A stretch of DNA of 64,000 nt. It comes from Escherichia phage vB-Eco-KMB26. Made by a program: the position numbers and the translations under genes. This document shows positions 30,708 through 39,398 of this stretch, piece by piece. Under the pieces are notes generated by a model. It was given only the letters and a program-made list of their open reading frames with translations, was not told the DNA's origin and searched no databases. Numbering within the stretch: the first letter of the stretch is position 1; the number at the start of each line of letters is the position of its first letter. The stretch is from sequence record OR539218.1; one strand, given 5' to 3'.

Positions 30708-31088
30708 TCAATTAGAAAATAAATTTATCCAAGATTGTTCTTTAATTAAAAATGGCTCAGAATCATATGCCATTAAACTCTGTGTGATTAGTCCTTTAAA
30801 AGGCCCATCAATAAATTCCATGGTAAAATATGGAATTTTATTCATTAGCCGTGCATTAGGAGCCGTGCACAAAACTCTGCATCCTTTGAATACGCCTTTT
30901 TGTAATTTGTATTGCTTGGGACAAAATTCGCTCAAAATGTTATTTTTTGCCAAAATTTCAAAATGATTCACCAATTTATTTTTAATAGTTTTTGGCGAAA
31001 AATAAAGATATTCGAAAAGCTGAGTGTCTGTCATCATTGCATTCCGATTACGAAAAACTGTGGACGAGTAATACCACCAATGCAACAT
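30708..31088 (-). CDS. Hypothetical protein
   Basis: 126-aa ORF. Confidence 0.5.
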   Translation of the reverse strand: MLHWWYYSSTVFRNRNAMMTDTQLFEYLYFSPKTIKNKLVNHFEILAKNNILSEFCPKQYKLQKGVFKGCRVLCTAPNARLMNKIPYFTMEFIDGPFKGLITQSLMAYDSEPFLIKEQSWINLFSN

Positions 31089-31573
31089 TTAATATTACAG
31101 CAGCAGTGTACAGTGTCAATATGGACACTATAAATCTTATCCATATCAGGAGATTTGACAGGCTCATCAATTATATACAAAATTCGCGAAAGTGATAAAC
31201 CTCTGAACTTGCTTCCTTTATTACCAATAAAACTGCGCACAGAATCAGTAAATAAACGAAAACGTATATCATCATTAGAATAACGCGAAAATTCCTTTTT
31301 AATATTATCTGCGGAAATTTTAGCGTAAGCTGAAGTATTAGAAAGAACAATAACTGTTCCACCGTCATACAACCAATTAGCGGCAAAATTAGTTACTGCA
31401 GTTGATTTACCAGATTGACGCCCACCATCTAGTCGAAGTGTACAATACTGTTTAAGTAAGTCTTCAAATGGCGGGATATATTCGTTTTTACAAATTTCTT
31501 CTACTCTAGCATCAGAATGGTGTGTAAAAGCATTCATCAGGGATAGATAAGGACCAGTTAAAAATGTTCTCAT
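31034..31573 (-). CDS. P-loop NTPase-like protein
   Basis: 179 aa; Walker A GGRQSGKST; Walker B-like ILYIIDE. Confidence 0.55.
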   Translation of the reverse strand: MRTFLTGPYLSLMNAFTHHSDARVEEICKNEYIPPFEDLLKQYCTLRLDGGRQSGKSTAVTNFAANWLYDGGTVIVLSNTSAYAKISADNIKKEFSRYSNDDIRFRLFTDSVRSFIGNKGSKFRGLSLSRILYIIDEPVKSPDMDKIYSVHIDTVHCCCNIKCCIGGITRPQFFVIGMQ

Positions 31574-31719: not shown

Positions 31720-32136
31720 TTAAATGTAAATATTTTTGCCGTAATACTTATACCAGTGTGGCTTCATTAAAATTTTTTCATCGAGTCGTTGTTGACTCAA
31801 CTTAATAGCTGATTTGCATGGATTATAATCATTTTTCCATTCTACTGGAATATCGCTGATGTCAGGAACTTCAGTATCTTTTATACTGAACCCGCGTTTT
31901 AAGCATTCCGTTATAATGTCCGATTGACGCTTTCGCAAAAATTCTAACTTATCGTAAAAGAAAGTAACATGACCAGAACCTAAAATAAATTTAGAAGATA
32001 TTTTAAAATCTTTAACGCGCTTACCGTTTGCCACATGCTTACGAACTATACCAAAAACACGCGGCAATTCACGGTATTCTGCGATTAAATGTTGATCAGC
32101 AAGTTCAGATACTAAAGTCAAATTAATACGAGTCAT
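31720..32136 (-). CDS. denV: Endonuclease V (pyrimidine-dimer DNA glycosylase)
   Basis: 138 aa; [17 protein letters not shown]... matches T4 DenV. Confidence 0.92.
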
Positions 32137-32154
32137 TTTATCCCTCCAAGTAAC

Positions 32155-32191
32155 TGTGAATATACTATCACAATTCTAGGAGAAAGTAAAC
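32155..32191 (-). promoter_or_regulatory. Early promoter upstream of denV (-35 GTTTAC, -10 TAGTAT)
   Basis: Minus strand GTTTACtttctcctagaattgtgaTAGTAT. Confidence 0.5.
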
Positions 32192-32195
32192 AACT

Positions 32196-32726
<531 letters not shown>

Positions 32727-33182
32727 TTAAAAGAGGCTGTTCATTATTCGGTAAAGTGAAGGACCCATCACATATTGCCACTGAGTACGAGGAATAAGAG
32801 CAAAAGCATCCATCTCTGGAATCATAACGCCATCTTTATTTTCAAAATAAGACTCGCAATGGCAATTTCTAAACATCTCATGCTCTACTGGAATCGTATA
32901 ATAAAATAACTGTAAGTCTTTATTACTAGAATATTTAAATACACCTAGGTCTTCTAGAAGGTCTGGATTATAATTGCTAAAACCGGTCTCTTCTAAGCAT
33001 TCTCTTTTTGCAGCTTCCAGTGCATTCAAATCAGAACTTTCTACGCGGCCCTTTGGAATATCCCAGCGATGTGCCATCATTCCAGGCTTACGAGAACCAG
33101 TAACCCGACCCATAAATAAATCTTTATCTTCTGTCATAAAGATAATACCAGCTGATAGTGTTTTCATTTTAATTTCCTGCAT
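32727..33182 (-). CDS. nudE: Nudix hydrolase NudE (alternative ATGA-coupled start at 33167)
   Basis: 151 aa; Nudix box GRVESSDLNALEAAKRECLEETG. Confidence 0.85.
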   Translation of the reverse strand: MQEIKMKTLSAGIIFMTEDKDLFMGRVTGSRKPGMMAHRWDIPKGRVESSDLNALEAAKRECLEETGFSNYNPDLLEDLGVFKYSSNKDLQLFYYTIPVEHEMFRNCHCESYFENKDGVMIPEMDAFALIPRTQWQYVMGPSLYRIMNSLF

Positions 33183-33652
33183 TCAGTGATAAAGTTATTT
33201 AAATTTTGAGTATATTTCTTTTCATCAAAAATCTTTTGTTGTCTGCGTAAACGCCATGGCATTTCAATGAACATACGCCATATTCCTGATAATACTGCTG
33301 CTGTAAAAATATTAACAAGTATAGTTAAAAGAACCCAATCTCCTATTCTGTCCATTGGATTTTTTATAAAAAAGTAAAATACGAACGATGATATAGGAAG
33401 ACTAATGATATACCACAGAAGAACCTTCTTATCTGTGAACCAATCAGCATTCGTTAACTTAGCGCGACCGTTTTGAATACATACGAACTTATCATCTGTT
33501 ACAGTAAATGGCTTAGCTGCTTGATATCCCATTCTAAACTCCCTAATCAACAAATTTTTCATATCTTCGGAACAACCATTCCAGTCAACTCTATCAACTG
33601 AAATGCCATCGTCCCCATCATCTAAATCATACCAGCGAGTTTTTAAAATCAT
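33164..33652 (-). CDS. Small membrane protein, C-terminal FITECRKLK; tandem paralog 1 of 3
   Basis: 162 aa; two hydrophobic helices then basic tail. Confidence 0.55.
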   Translation of the reverse strand: MILKTRWYDLDDGDDGISVDRVDWNGCSEDMKNLLIREFRMGYQAAKPFTVTDDKFVCIQNGRAKLTNADWFTDKKVLLWYIISLPISSFVFYFFIKNPMDRIGDWVLLTILVNIFTAAVLSGIWRMFIEMPWRLRRQQKIFDEKKYTQNLNNFITECRKLK

Positions 33653-34011
33653 TTAATTTTCCTACAATCACTCACAAACTCTTCCATTGATTCTTTTTCA
33701 ATATAAGACATATAGCTATTATATTCCTTTAATTGTATTTTGTAATCCTTTTTTCTTTGCCAATTTATTTTAAAATTATCATAATGAAAATATAACATGG
33801 TACCAAAGAATGAAAATAATGAAATCGCTATAGTAAAACGAAGTTCACTCCAAACCTCTGTTATAATTACTGTGCCGTCGATATTTAAAATAAAACAGTC
33901 AATTAACAATCCAATAAGACTACCCGCAAGAGCTGTAAATACTGATACAGCAAGAATTAATAGTGCCTCAGGAAACGAATATTTGACTTTATTTAGTTTT
34001 GGCTTTTGCAT
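33649..34011 (-). CDS. Small membrane protein, C-terminal FVSDCRKIK; tandem paralog 2 of 3
   Basis: 120 aa; two hydrophobic helices. Confidence 0.55.
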   Translation of the reverse strand: MQKPKLNKVKYSFPEALLILAVSVFTALAGSLIGLLIDCFILNIDGTVIITEVWSELRFTIAISLFSFFGTMLYFHYDNFKINWQRKKDYKIQLKEYNSYMSYIEKESMEEFVSDCRKIK

Positions 34012-34406
34012 CGTGATTCCTTAACAAATTTCATAATTTCATCAAATTCATACATATCTAGCTTAAGCTGGTGTTCCTTTTTAATCTTTTTACACTGAGC
34101 TTTCCAATCACGTACACGTTTACGATAATGTCTTCCTTGATACCAGTATCCTACCCAATTTACGGGTACTAATAAAAGTGGAACTATTAATGGAAGAATT
34201 AGCATTAACACAAGTATTTCGCCAGAATCAATATCAGTCATAACATCTAAAACACCTCCAATAATCAATAGAATTACAAATGATATGAGTATAACAGGAC
34301 CTATTAACACATCAGTAGAAATTATCTGACGCTTTGGTTCATACTTCACAGGTTTACTTGGAAGGTATAGTGATGGTTTTGACATATTCTCTACATTCCT
34401 TAACAA
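33993..34406 (-). CDS. Small membrane protein, C-terminal FVKESRCK; tandem paralog 3 of 3
   Basis: 137 aa; two hydrophobic helices. Confidence 0.55.
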   Translation of the reverse strand: MLRNVENMSKPSLYLPSKPVKYEPKRQIISTDVLIGPVILISFVILLIIGGVLDVMTDIDSGEILVLMLILPLIVPLLLVPVNWVGYWYQGRHYRKRVRDWKAQCKKIKKEHQLKLDMYEFDEIMKFVKESRCKSQN

Positions 34407-34968
34407 ATTTTTCTAGTAATAAATCACTTTCAAAATTGGGATTTTCTACAAATTTATCAAAAAGATCATCAACAATAGTTAAGATATTCTTTTTACTAAG
34501 AATACGTTTATTTTCATGCTTCGTTTCAGAATCAACTATAAGAGTAAAGAAATATTTCTTGCCCTGAAATTTTACAGTAGTATCAATATAAAATAAATTT
34601 GACTTTTGTAAATTACGTTTAAACCATGCGTCACTTAAACTATAAACACCGAGATAATCAAAATCGTCGTTTAAATAACAAACCGTCCATTCAGGAGAAA
34701 TGAAATCAGTAAATTCAACATCAAAATCACACGTCAATGAATGAATTGATTCAATACTGTTAATGAGTATTCCAGGACGTATTAAAGACTTTTTACCTCT
34801 AGAAAATCTTCCGGAAAGGCTTTCATCAGTTTCATATGAAGACCCCCAATAGTAATTACGTCCTTCTGCCATGCGTTTAAGAGCATTTAGTAATTGGTCT
34901 GGAACATCAACCTGTCTTTGGAACTCTTCAAACATTGAATTGAAATCACTTTGCATTTTCATTTTCAT
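34354..34968 (-). CDS. Hypothetical protein
   Basis: 204-aa ORF. Confidence 0.55.
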   Translation of the reverse strand: MKMKMQSDFNSMFEEFQRQVDVPDQLLNALKRMAEGRNYYWGSSYETDESLSGRFSRGKKSLIRPGILINSIESIHSLTCDFDVEFTDFISPEWTVCYLNDDFDYLGVYSLSDAWFKRNLQKSNLFYIDTTVKFQGKKYFFTLIVDSETKHENKRILSKKNILTIVDDLFDKFVENPNFESDLLLEKFVKECREYVKTITIPSK

Positions 34969-34987
34969 TCCTATTTACTCCAAGTAT

Positions 34988-35005
34988 AAGGGGCCGAAGC
35001 CCCTT
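34988..35005 (-). terminator. C(UUCG)G hairpin GGGGCttcgGCCCC
   Basis: Stem-loop read directly, 3' of ORF 35010-35603. Confidence 0.55.
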
Positions 35006-35009
35006 ATCA

Positions 35010-36408: not shown

Positions 36409-36435
36409 AAAAAGCCCCAACCTTTTGGTCGGGGC
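36409..36435 (-). terminator. Intrinsic terminator GCCCCGACC-aaaa-GGTTGGGGC + U5, downstream of the IP-like gene; near-identical to hairpin at 36964-36990
   Basis: 9-bp stem and T-run read on minus strand. Confidence 0.65.
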
Positions 36436-36443
36436 TAAGAATG

Positions 36444-36963: not shown

Positions 36964-36990
36964 AAAAAGCCCCAACCTTTCGGTCGGGGC
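36964..36990 (-). terminator. Intrinsic terminator GCCCCGACC-gaaa-GGTTGGGGC + U5 at the 3' end of the tRNA/stable-RNA transcription unit
   Basis: Second copy of the 36409-36435 hairpin. Confidence 0.65.
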
Positions 36991-37042
36991 TAAGCCTTGC
37001 GGCAACCTTGTCGGGGTTCCACCTGCTAAGGCAAGTGTTTGT

Positions 37043-39164: not shown

Positions 39165-39398
39165 TTATTTTTTACGAAAAATTGATTTATTTTCTGCTGC
39201 CCATTTTTCAATAACTGCAGCAGGACCAGTAACAACAATTTTATCACCGTAATCTTCTGCGGCGAGTTGACCGAAATTATCTAATGCATCACGAAGAACT
39301 CCATGAGGCATTTCACCCATTTTATCTTTCTTGCCAGTGTAAATAAACTCAACTTTTACATCAGCAGTTTCAGCAATAAATTCTTGGTAAGTTTTCAT
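39165..39398 (-). CDS. Internal protein (IP-type) with exact capsid-targeting sequence MKTYQEFIAE (ORF track extends to 39410)
   Basis: N-terminal 10 aa identical to the T4 IP targeting sequence as recalled. Confidence 0.65.
   Translation of the reverse strand: MKTYQEFIAETADVKVEFIYTGKKDKMGEMPHGVLRDALDNFGQLAAEDYGDKIVVTGPAAVIEKWAAENKSIFRKK

Follow-up and report, generated by a model that had tools for sequence, protein, structure and literature searches.

About half of the genes of bacteriophage T4 are still without a function, and the region running from the lysozyme gene e to the tRNA genes is one of the variable "accessory" zones of this genome. Among described elements, the one that compares best with the sequence considered here is the T4 capsid-targeting sequence, an N-terminal peptide (MKTYQEFIAE) reportedly carried by IPI, IPII, and IPIII, the description of which is said to go back to Mullaney and Black in 1996. 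At the DNA level, promoter-early stem-loops (PeSLs) mediate modular shuffling in T4-type variable regions (PMC2839356, PMC4122927). Here, we place in this context a 64,000-nucleotide stretch of Escherichia phage vB-Eco-KMB26 (sequence record OR539218.1), hereafter referred to as the window. Three adjacent open reading frames (ORFs) on its minus strand, which we assign to T4 genes e.2, e.3, and e.4, had been singled out in an original prediction as tandem membrane paralogs with a common C-terminal CRK motif. We find that the shared element, hereafter the tail motif, has the consensus hydrophobic(-3)-[E/N](-2)-x-F(0)-[I/V](+1)-x-x-C(+4)-R(+5) and is conserved at the protein level on a set of proteins that goes beyond these three.

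Like the capsid-targeting sequence, the tail motif is a short terminal peptide on unrelated, rapidly exchanged accessory proteins of the same variable region, and for the notion of one address tag on many bodies, the capsid-targeting sequence is the best analogy. They differ in position, N-terminal for the capsid-targeting sequence and C-terminal for the tail motif; the former is carried by soluble virion proteins and cut by the prohead protease, whereas some carriers of the latter are membrane proteins, and nothing links it to the capsid. The resemblance between "EFIAE" of the former and the latter is too short to carry meaning, and the idea of a gp21 cleavage site, in which [I/V]-x-E ahead of the Cys approximates a prohead-protease site, was dropped, since the carriers are membrane and cytoplasmic proteins. 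PeSL cassettes share with the motif-bearing junctions the character of repeated short boundary sequences at which indels and replacements break (PMC2839356, PMC4122927); they consist, however, of an intergenic terminator plus promoter, whereas the junctions here consist of coding sequence plus ribosome-binding site and are conserved as protein. No intergenic DNA and no stem-loop, terminator-like, or promoter-like site is found in the junctions from e.5 to nudE, where genes overlap by 4-32 nt. The motif element resembles both precedents in its logic and has the defining features of neither.

Gene assignments and the shared tail motif

The stretch 33100-34500 matches Escherichia phage MLP2 at 100% nucleotide identity and hundreds of Tequatrovirus genomes at 90% or more; the window phage is a T4-like coliphage, and its gene order e.6-e.5-e.4-e.3-e.2-nudE-e is that of T4 and of the MLP2 annotation. 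On the strength of profile matches and gene order, the three flagged ORFs, all on the minus strand, are assigned as orthologs of e.2 (162 aa, 33164-33652; PHROG 2203, E = 3e-78, with synteny to T4 e.2), e.3 (120 aa, 33649-34011; PHROG 2330, E = 2e-58, with supporting ortholog alignments), and e.4 (130 aa, 33993-34385; PHROG 2604, E = 1.5e-70, with Mosigvirus and Gaprivervirus orthologs), each match spanning the entire profile. They are preceded by an ortholog of e.5, a soluble α/β protein of 204 aa (34354-34968, minus; PHROG 2607, E = 9e-110), and followed by nudE, which encodes a Nudix hydrolase (32727-33167, minus; Pfam NUDIX E = 3e-13). All four PHROG families are function-less. nudE is the final gene of a tight overlapping run, e.5-e.4-e.3-e.2-nudE, in which its ATG overlaps the e.2 stop (AAATGA), e.3 and e.2 overlap by 4 nt (ATGA), and e.4 and e.3 overlap by 19 nt. 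The ORF locations, lengths, and overlaps, as well as the peptide strings FITECRKLK, FVSDCRKIK, and FVKESRCK, are present as first described, with one correction. The frame of the third ORF was right, and its start is the ATG at 34385, annotated in T4 and MLP2 (393 nt, 130 aa) and located 10 nt 3' of AAGGAA, not the in-frame upstream TTG at 34406, which would give 33993-34406 and 137 aa.

A search of all six frames of the window for F[IVLM]x[ED]C[RK] returned four matches; e.2, e.3, and e.5 each account for one, at the C-terminus, and the fourth lies in a 27-codon non-gene. The looser pattern F[IVLM]xxC[RK] ends no other real gene in the T4 genome outside 50-64 kb, the stretch covered by the window, and matches once internally, in gene 30.3, presumably by chance. 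The shared motif is not a chance occurrence. e.5 is a fourth carrier, with LLLEKFVKECREYVK located within its last helix (...KFVKECREYVK...), and the motif is not confined to membrane proteins, since it ends soluble e.5 and other soluble proteins. It is also conserved in orthologs: those of e.2, e.3, and e.5 retain it across six genera, and it is still present where identity has fallen to about 20-25% in Mosigvirus, Dhakavirus, Gaprivervirus, Kanagawavirus, and Carettavirus. In Mosigvirus JK36, the tails read FIMECREY (e.5), FVKEIRCKSLNS (e.4), and FIKECRK (e.3); in Dhakavirus, FIAECREY (orf131), FIKECKS (e.3), and FIEECRK (e.2-like); and in Gaprivervirus VR25, FIKECREY, FIKEVRNGTA (e.4-like), and FIKECKS (e.3). 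Carettavirus phiE142 encodes a 101-aa membrane protein (gp148) ending in ...LENFIKECRGK, and Kanagawavirus-like phages encode a 92-99-aa soluble protein (...FIKQCRRNQNVS), a 195/234-aa soluble protein (...FVDQCRANIK...), and an e.3-like membrane protein (...FIKNVRRK). In these related genera, the motif ends at least four more proteins that cannot be aligned with each other, and every carrier is encoded between e.6 and nudE.

A profile search with e.2 against 1.8 billion representative proteins retrieved only 15 clusters, all of them e.2-like or chimeras; leaving aside a 2100-aa match (P0114), none of the 15 contains an informative extra domain. Distant full-length e.2 relatives end in FIKECRK, FIKGCRK, FIKMCRNS, FITECRNLR, or FIKGCRNGHN, and ten relatives sharing 19-36% identity have ten invariant columns, three of which are the F, C, and R of the motif (F154, C158, and R159). 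The N-terminal domain of e.2 is conserved as well (W..LDDG..GI..VDW..C, followed by GYQP). At position +3, all four Kanagawavirus carriers lack an acidic residue (Q, N, Q or M, and G), and all carriers of the other five genera have E or D, bar a doubtful Dhakavirus FLEYCR protein; this co-variation is weakly suggestive of a common interface.

The extent to which the carriers are related outside the motif differs from pair to pair. BLASTP aligns e.2 with e.3 over the 14-aa motif only (E = 0.005 for a single comparison) and returns nothing significant for the other pairs, and PHROGs place e.2, e.3, and e.4 in three separate families. HHalign, with family alignments from four to six genera as input, aligned e.3 and e.4 over 42 tail columns (probability 62%, score 31.9); shuffling columns within the N-terminus, helix 1, loop, helix 2, and tail gave 18.7 ± 4.4, with 0 of 60 shuffles as high, and the reversed alignment scored 16.3. 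Among 453 local ORFs searched with the e.3 profile, e.4 proteins took the top rank outside the family (E = 2e-4 to 6e-2), and the N-termini of the two proteins are alike in an MxKPxL pattern (MQKPKL..KVKYS and MSKPSL..KPVKYE). By the same method, e.2 aligned with e.3/e.4 over the 18-column motif only (score 35.5 vs 12.7 ± 2.6); e.5 and Dhakavirus orf131, which occupy the same slot, are alignable over the last 18 columns only. These comparisons make e.3 and e.4 a probable, moderately supported duplicate pair. The earlier description of three tandem paralogs may thus hold for e.3 and e.4 and is not supported for e.2, which shares the motif only and has a 75-aa N-terminal domain of its own. Outside the e.3/e.4 pair, the picture suggested by the alignments is one of a single tag on several unrelated bodies.

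The genes e.2, e.3, and e.4 themselves are already known, catalogued, and uncharacterized. e.2 is intact here (162 aa), as opposed to a 102-aa ORF in the T4 reference: compared with window positions 33150-33670, T4 e.2 (67477-67974) lacks 1 nt of an A-run and has 1 nt inserted 78 nt further downstream, and it is because of these -1/+1 frameshifts, which leave the motif-bearing 3' end intact, that T4 annotates only the shorter form. They represent either a real laboratory-strain lesion or an old sequencing error. The e.3 protein of the window is 82% identical to T4 e.3 (about 77-100% among Tequatrovirus relatives). Pfam, NCBIfam, and PADLOC gave no meaningful match for e.2-e.5, and searching the PDB by sequence gave none; the Pfam release searched lacks PF26896, PF26876, and PF26873, with which a large protein collection tags e.2, e.5, and e.4 (the last as part of a fusion), and Pfam families for these proteins have apparently been built already. 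GenBank and nr records label some e.3 and e.4 orthologs "sulfurtransferase," "putative sulfurtransferase," or "DNA primase"; no sulfurtransferase or primase family matches e.3 or e.4 in Pfam, NCBIfam, or PHROGs, and these labels look like propagated annotation errors. In a genome-wide CRISPRi-ART screen, the T4 genes e.2-e.5 carry the label "conserved hypothetical (predicted membrane) protein" with prior essentiality "unknown" and scored "not fit," that is, without a fitness effect (PMC11879866, supplementary files 8 and 15). A T4 transposon-sequencing preprint does not mention e.2-e.5, literature searches by gene name returned only screen tables and no published function for them, and no earlier description of the shared tail motif or its dual coding was found in the literature searched.

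Dual coding and rearrangement at the gene junctions

The codons of the tail motif double as translation signals of the gene that follows. On the minus strand, the e.2 motif F-I-T-E-C-R-K-L-K (33167-33193) contains AGG AAA (33173-33178) as the Shine-Dalgarno sequence for nudE, and the e.3 motif F-V-S-D-C-R-K-I-K (33652-33678) contains AGG AAA (33658-33663) as that for e.2, the ATG of which lies at 33650-33652. The e.3 end thus reads TGT AGG AAA ATT AAA TGA, with the e.2 ATG inside AAATGA, and the e.2 end, TGC AGG AAA TTA AAA TGA, repeats this arrangement in the service of nudE. The e.4 variant F-V-K-E-S-R-C (34008-34028, minus; TTT GTT AAG GAA TCA CGA TGC) contains AAG GAA (34017-34022) as the Shine-Dalgarno sequence for e.3, and the e.5 motif F-V-K-E-C-R (34390-34407, minus; TTT GTT AAG GAA TGT AGA GAA TAT G) contains AAG GAA (34396-34401) upstream of the e.4 ATG (34383-34385). 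The Cys codon of e.4, TGC, is made up of the TG of the e.3 ATG (34009-34011) and the following base; the Cys in the FVKESRCK string is therefore an artifact of the overlap, and the true core is F-V-K-E-[S/I/V]-R. Across junctions, AAGGAA, GAGGAA, or AAAGGA falls on the x-E (or x-G) codons, or AGGAAA on R-K, followed by an ATGA-type overlap; x is K (AAG) in every case in which the Shine-Dalgarno sequence occupies the x-E codons, and RK[IL]K-stop is composed of the AGGAAA Shine-Dalgarno sequence, a spacer, and the AAATGA start/stop overlap. Variation at x-E, the ending RK[IL]K, and the displacement of the e.4 Cys all arise because the same bases hold the Shine-Dalgarno sequence and the start codon of the gene that follows, and Tequatrovirus e.2 and e.3 need two extra residues ([IL]K) because their Shine-Dalgarno sequence lies on the R-K codons.

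These overlaps raise the question of whether the motif is anything other than a by-product, that is, a U-rich leader, Shine-Dalgarno sequence, spacer, and start read in frame. Such an origin would account for a Shine-Dalgarno sequence inside the motif in most junctions (AAG GAA as K-E, GAG GAA as E-E, AAA GGA as K-G, and AGG AAA as R-K), for K at x exactly where that sequence falls, for "K-stop" as AAATGA, for an e.4 Cys made by the e.3 ATG, and for an acidic +3 residue that can be replaced by G, M, Q, or N. It does not account for F, C, and R remaining constant under codon change (Cys as TGT or TGC; Arg as AGG, AGA, CGT, CGC, or CGA), including the GC-rich TGC CGT. The spacing between the core and the Shine-Dalgarno sequence or start, moreover, ranges from overlap to a core more than 20-30 nt upstream (Dhakavirus orf131 and the Kanagawavirus 195/234-aa protein). 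In these two proteins and in the Kanagawavirus 92-99-aa protein, the whole core precedes the Shine-Dalgarno sequence, by up to about 30 nt. None of the many other overlapping gene pairs of T4 ends in such a peptide, there being no other C-terminal match in the genome. We consider a pure by-product improbable and, because codons vary synonymously and residues are fixed, conclude that F, I/V, C, and R are under protein-level selection, with the x-E positions and all residues after R shaped largely by the downstream ribosome-binding site. A hairpin in the e.5-nudE region is found only upstream of e.5; because the genes of this five-gene run overlap and the only hairpin is 5' of e.5, the run is likely translated in a coupled fashion, as would be typical for subunits made together.

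The junctions are also sites of rearrangement. A repeat search identified a 16-nt exact direct repeat, ATTCCTTAACAAATTT, at 34016-34031, where it encodes KFVKE and a Shine-Dalgarno sequence on the minus strand, and at 34395-34410, at the e.5/e.4 junction, the two copies bracketing e.4. Dhakavirus JS98 and vB_EcoM_005 lack e.4, and their orf131 ends in ...EYAKEVQNGTA or ...EYAKEVRNV; the Gaprivervirus junctions flanking e.4 read ...EYAKGVQN... and ...FIKEVRNGTA, and to judge from these endings, the Dhakavirus junction looks like a crossover between the two. In phiE142, e.3 is reduced to its last ~25 codons, which include the motif and the start signals of the next gene. P0096 (phage vB_EcoM-UFV05; also H90 and UFV11) is an e.4(1-31)::e.2(87-162) fusion joined inside the first membrane helices, with e.3 deleted, and the metagenomic P0121 (83 aa) joins an unrelated soluble N-terminal part to the final 21 residues of e.2; this exact chimera was not found in the phage collection. 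The gene next to e.3 varies among genera. Breakpoints thus fall at or beside the motif in the loss of e.4, the e.3 remnant, P0121, P0096, and the e.5/orf131 replacement, and the junctions behave as joints for gain, loss, fusion, and swap of whole genes.

Events of this kind could mean that the conserved 3' ends serve mainly as recombination linkers for the exchange of accessory-gene cassettes, the peptide being tolerated and not selected. Consistent with such a role are the exact repeat that flanks e.4, the crossover-like junction of e.4-less Dhakavirus, the 3' remnant that is all phiE142 keeps of e.3, the foreign body of P0121 with its e.2 tail, the P0096 fusion, the slot and tail shared by the non-homologous e.5 and orf131, the genus-specific genes after e.3, and the boundary-mediated shuffling established for T4-type variable regions with PeSLs (PMC2839356, PMC4122927). 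Between genera, however, nucleotides diverge while amino acids are kept, which is the opposite of what DNA homology needs; most copies within one genome share ~6-10 nt, with 16 nt reached only in the e.5/e.4 pair; and it is left unexplained why F, C, and R belong to the ten residues that are invariant in the e.2 family. As the main reason for conservation, a linker role is unlikely, and it is probably a consequence of the motif and not its origin.

A separate observation concerns the genes that directly follow e.3 in Mosigvirus, Dhakavirus, Gaprivervirus, Kanagawavirus, and Carettavirus, where three to six small ORFs in tandem, encoding soluble proteins of 65-105 aa, all end in G-W-V-S-S-S-x-x-C-stop (for example, GAWVSSSALC, GGWVSSSSEC, and WVSSSYEC), most of them directly preceding the ribosome-binding site of the next gene (TAAGGAA...ATG). 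This second family with a conserved Cys-terminal motif (L003, 2857-3651; L004, 2851-3639; L005, 2782-3363; L014, 4351-5601; L018, 966-2589) is absent at this position in the window.

Membrane topology and candidate roles of the tail

The two hydrophobic helices noted earlier in each flagged protein are borne out by the Hessa scale, which, summed over 19 residues, gives two membrane-grade segments of 2.3 kcal or less in all three: aa 78-96 (33365-33421) and 107-125 (33278-33334) in e.2, aa 19-37 (33901-33957) and 57-75 (33787-33843) in e.3, and aa 28-46 (34248-34304) and 57-75 (34161-34217) in e.4, all on the minus strand. The minima of the soluble neighbors e.5, nudE, e, and e.6 are at least 7.8, and just six of the 66 window ORFs of at least 100 aa fall below 3. 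Kyte-Doolittle analysis resolves two separate peaks in e.2 and e.4 and the first segment only in e.3. The loops between the helices are 7-13 residues long and contain no K/R and three D/E in e.3 and e.4 and two of each class in e.2, whereas the N-termini of e.3 and e.4 and the C-terminal tails of all three are K/R-rich, with 10, 10, and 14 K+R among the last 45 residues of e.2, e.3, and e.4, respectively, in keeping with the basic tails described at the outset. Because of this charge distribution and the positive-inside rule, all three proteins are predicted to be inner-membrane hairpins of N-in/C-in topology. In e.2, a 75-aa N-terminal domain precedes the helices, and the basic tail ends in NLNNFITECRKLK; e.3 has a basic N-terminus (MQKPKL) and a 43-aa tail ending in MEEFVSDCRKIK; and e.4 begins with MSKPSL and has a basic 50-aa tail ending in IMKFVKESRCKSQN.

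An AlphaFold2 model of e.2, of low confidence (pLDDT 52), contains helices at 68-96 and 103-160, the second of which runs from the membrane through the tail and motif, and that of e.5 (pTM 0.66) places the motif within helix 183-198. e.5 has no hydrophobic segment and is soluble, and its fold relatives are solely uncharacterized Straboviridae proteins. The models point to a helical motif in both proteins, which for e.2 is only indicated; on such a helix, positions -3, 0, +1, and +4 would make up one non-polar face. Within Tequatrovirus, the fraction of invariant columns is 0.85 in the tail and 0.33-0.57 in the membrane helices of e.2, 0.72 and 0.50-0.57 in e.3, and 0.88 and 0.54-0.62 in e.4. 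The cytoplasmic ends, tail and N-terminal end alike, are thus more conserved than the helices and loop, and the e.3 loop has an RSNV indel among close relatives. This pattern fits helices that anchor cytoplasmic functional ends, and the variable membrane part could also reflect diversifying pressure.

The original prediction had named these proteins as candidates for superinfection exclusion, immunity, or modulation of host membrane sensors, which would make them inner-membrane factors comparable to T4 Imm. Imm (83 aa, two membrane helices) is, like e.2-e.4, a small early inner-membrane hairpin of the same phage, so that the gross architecture agrees; variable helices and loops among close relatives could be the product of an arms race, and dispensability in the laboratory is usual for accessory factors. 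Unlike e.2-e.4, Imm lacks a long basic tail and the motif, and its gene is located elsewhere in the genome. BLASTP against T4 Imm gave E = 26. With an e.3 profile, a candidate homology of 7.9-11 bits was confined to the membrane helices; since 7 of 1000 composition-preserving shuffles scored as high, it was dismissed as noise at the level of architecture. Besides this lack of significant similarity to Imm and of any match in defense or other family libraries, periplasmic loops of just 7-13 residues, cytoplasmic tails that are the most constrained part, and the same tail on soluble cytoplasmic proteins all weigh against such a role, and relaxed constraint on an anchor would equally give variable helices. 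We regard an exclusion or immunity function as having little probability. Since the segments are membrane-grade and the motif is conserved in orthologs, the refuting outcome named in the original prediction did not occur; the earlier observation is confirmed and extended, and its interpretation is partly supported.

A second comparison is with class II holins, which e.2-e.4 resemble in being small, with two helices, an N-in/C-in topology, and a charged C-terminus, and in lying close to the endolysin gene e. They differ in belonging to an early-type cluster and in tails that are long, conserved, and shared with soluble proteins, and no holin family in Pfam, PHROGs, or NCBIfam matches e.2-e.4. 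T4 requires holin T for lysis, which does not take place in t mutants. A promoter scan, with 24 sites vs 23 in shuffles, gives no evidence on timing.

The conserved Cys might alternatively be chemically active, the carriers jointly forming a metal, redox, or covalently modified site through an E-C-R triad. A single conserved Cys beside a conserved Arg in three to five co-expressed proteins per genome would suit this idea, as would the neighboring tandem family of other genera, which likewise ends in a conserved Cys. Replacement of the Cys by V, I, or S in some carriers (e.4 and the Kanagawavirus e.3-like protein), together with its position on the non-polar face, argues instead for packing rather than a chemical role, and the preceding Glu is dispensable; we consider an active site very improbable.

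The explanation that we favor, while holding it tentatively and at slightly less than even strength, is that accessory proteins anchored in the membrane share the tail motif as a cytoplasmic helix for docking or assembly. Such an element is suggested because this helix also forms the end of soluble e.5 and of several unrelated proteins encoded between e.6 and nudE in related phages. In such a mechanism, e.2, e.3, and e.4 would be inner-membrane hairpins with both ends in the cytoplasm and the 7-13-residue loop outside, their helices mainly serving as anchors. The constrained functional parts would be the cytoplasmic N-terminal peptide (the 75-aa domain in e.2) and a basic helical tail ending in a short amphipathic helix with the core hydrophobic(-3)-[E/N]-x-F-[I/V]-x-x-C-R, and this terminal helix would bind one common partner or bundle co-translated carriers at the membrane. 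Motif codons also provide the following gene with its Shine-Dalgarno sequence and overlapping start, coupled translation being presumed; as a side effect, similar DNA is placed at all of the junctions, where genes are gained, lost, fused, and swapped. A binding function of the helix, its target, and any phenotype are in this sense putative.

Several points weigh against this explanation. Knock-down in T4 was without effect, which argues against an obligatory complex under laboratory conditions, and e.2, e.3, and e.4 are each missing or broken in some natural phage and are individually dispensable. The docking partner of the tail helix is purely putative. The co-variation at +3 comes from a single lineage and is weak, and tail helicity in e.2 is only indicated, given a model with pLDDT of 52. 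The motif is degenerate in e.4 and in the Kanagawavirus e.3-like protein, where V, I, or S replaces the Cys, and e.4 may not be a genuine carrier. U-rich F-I/V codons lie just 5' of the Shine-Dalgarno sequence in many junctions, and this half of the motif could in part be under selection as RNA.

A more far-reaching form of the docking-helix explanation, which we hold to be possible but doubtful, is that the F-[I/V]-x-x-C-R helix serves as a dedicated address tag at the C-terminus, the counterpart at the cytoplasmic membrane of the capsid-targeting sequence. It would bring a changing set of unrelated accessory proteins to a single target of phage or host, or into one assembly bound to the membrane, and, being fused to the ribosome-binding site of the gene that follows, would at the same time provide a splice point at which T-even phages swap ready-to-express effector cassettes. 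Its cargo might then comprise the membrane proteins e.2, e.3, e.4, and phiE142 gp148 and the soluble proteins e.5, orf131, and the Kanagawavirus 92-99-aa and 195/234-aa proteins.

Flanking features and meaning for T4-type phages

Beyond nudE, the minus strand of the window encodes the e lysozyme (32196-32690) and denV (31720-32136). denV lies directly beside e, separated by 32137-32195; ipII and ipIII, which are found between these genes in T4 (65356-66502), are absent there. The sole gene in the window with an MKTYQEFIAE leader is an internal-protein-like gene at 39165-39398 (minus). Upstream of denV, a 179-aa ORF in the vs.8 slot of T4 (31034-31573, minus) has a weak P-loop/AAA-like match (AAA_14 E = 0.002, under the family cut-off). 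On the other side of the run, e.6, a 197-aa ORF next to e.5 named by comparison with the annotated T4 record, was suspected from its sequence to be PspA-like, which found no support in Pfam. Two near-identical GC-rich stem-loops, AGCCCCGACC-GAAA/AAAA-GGTTGGGGCT followed by a T-run, are located 555 nt apart on the minus strand at 36413-36436 and 36968-36991, and sigma-70-like hexamers lie a short way downstream of them (36273-36245 and 36227-36199); in this they resemble PeSL terminator/promoter cassettes. A separate hairpin of the GGGGCC-GAAG style lies between e.6 and e.5 (34986-35007).

For the wider search for motifs in such genomes, the locus holds a caution, in that "RK[IL]K" and the Cys of e.4 are translation signals read in frame. 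Should the tail prove to be partnerless, the finding shrinks to ordinary annotated T4 ORFs. As it stands, one short sequence would be selected at three levels, as peptide, as ribosome-binding site, and as recombination joint. If it is true that three to five body-unrelated proteins per genome share one helix, the target bound by the tail could place this whole block of genomic dark matter in a single pathway.

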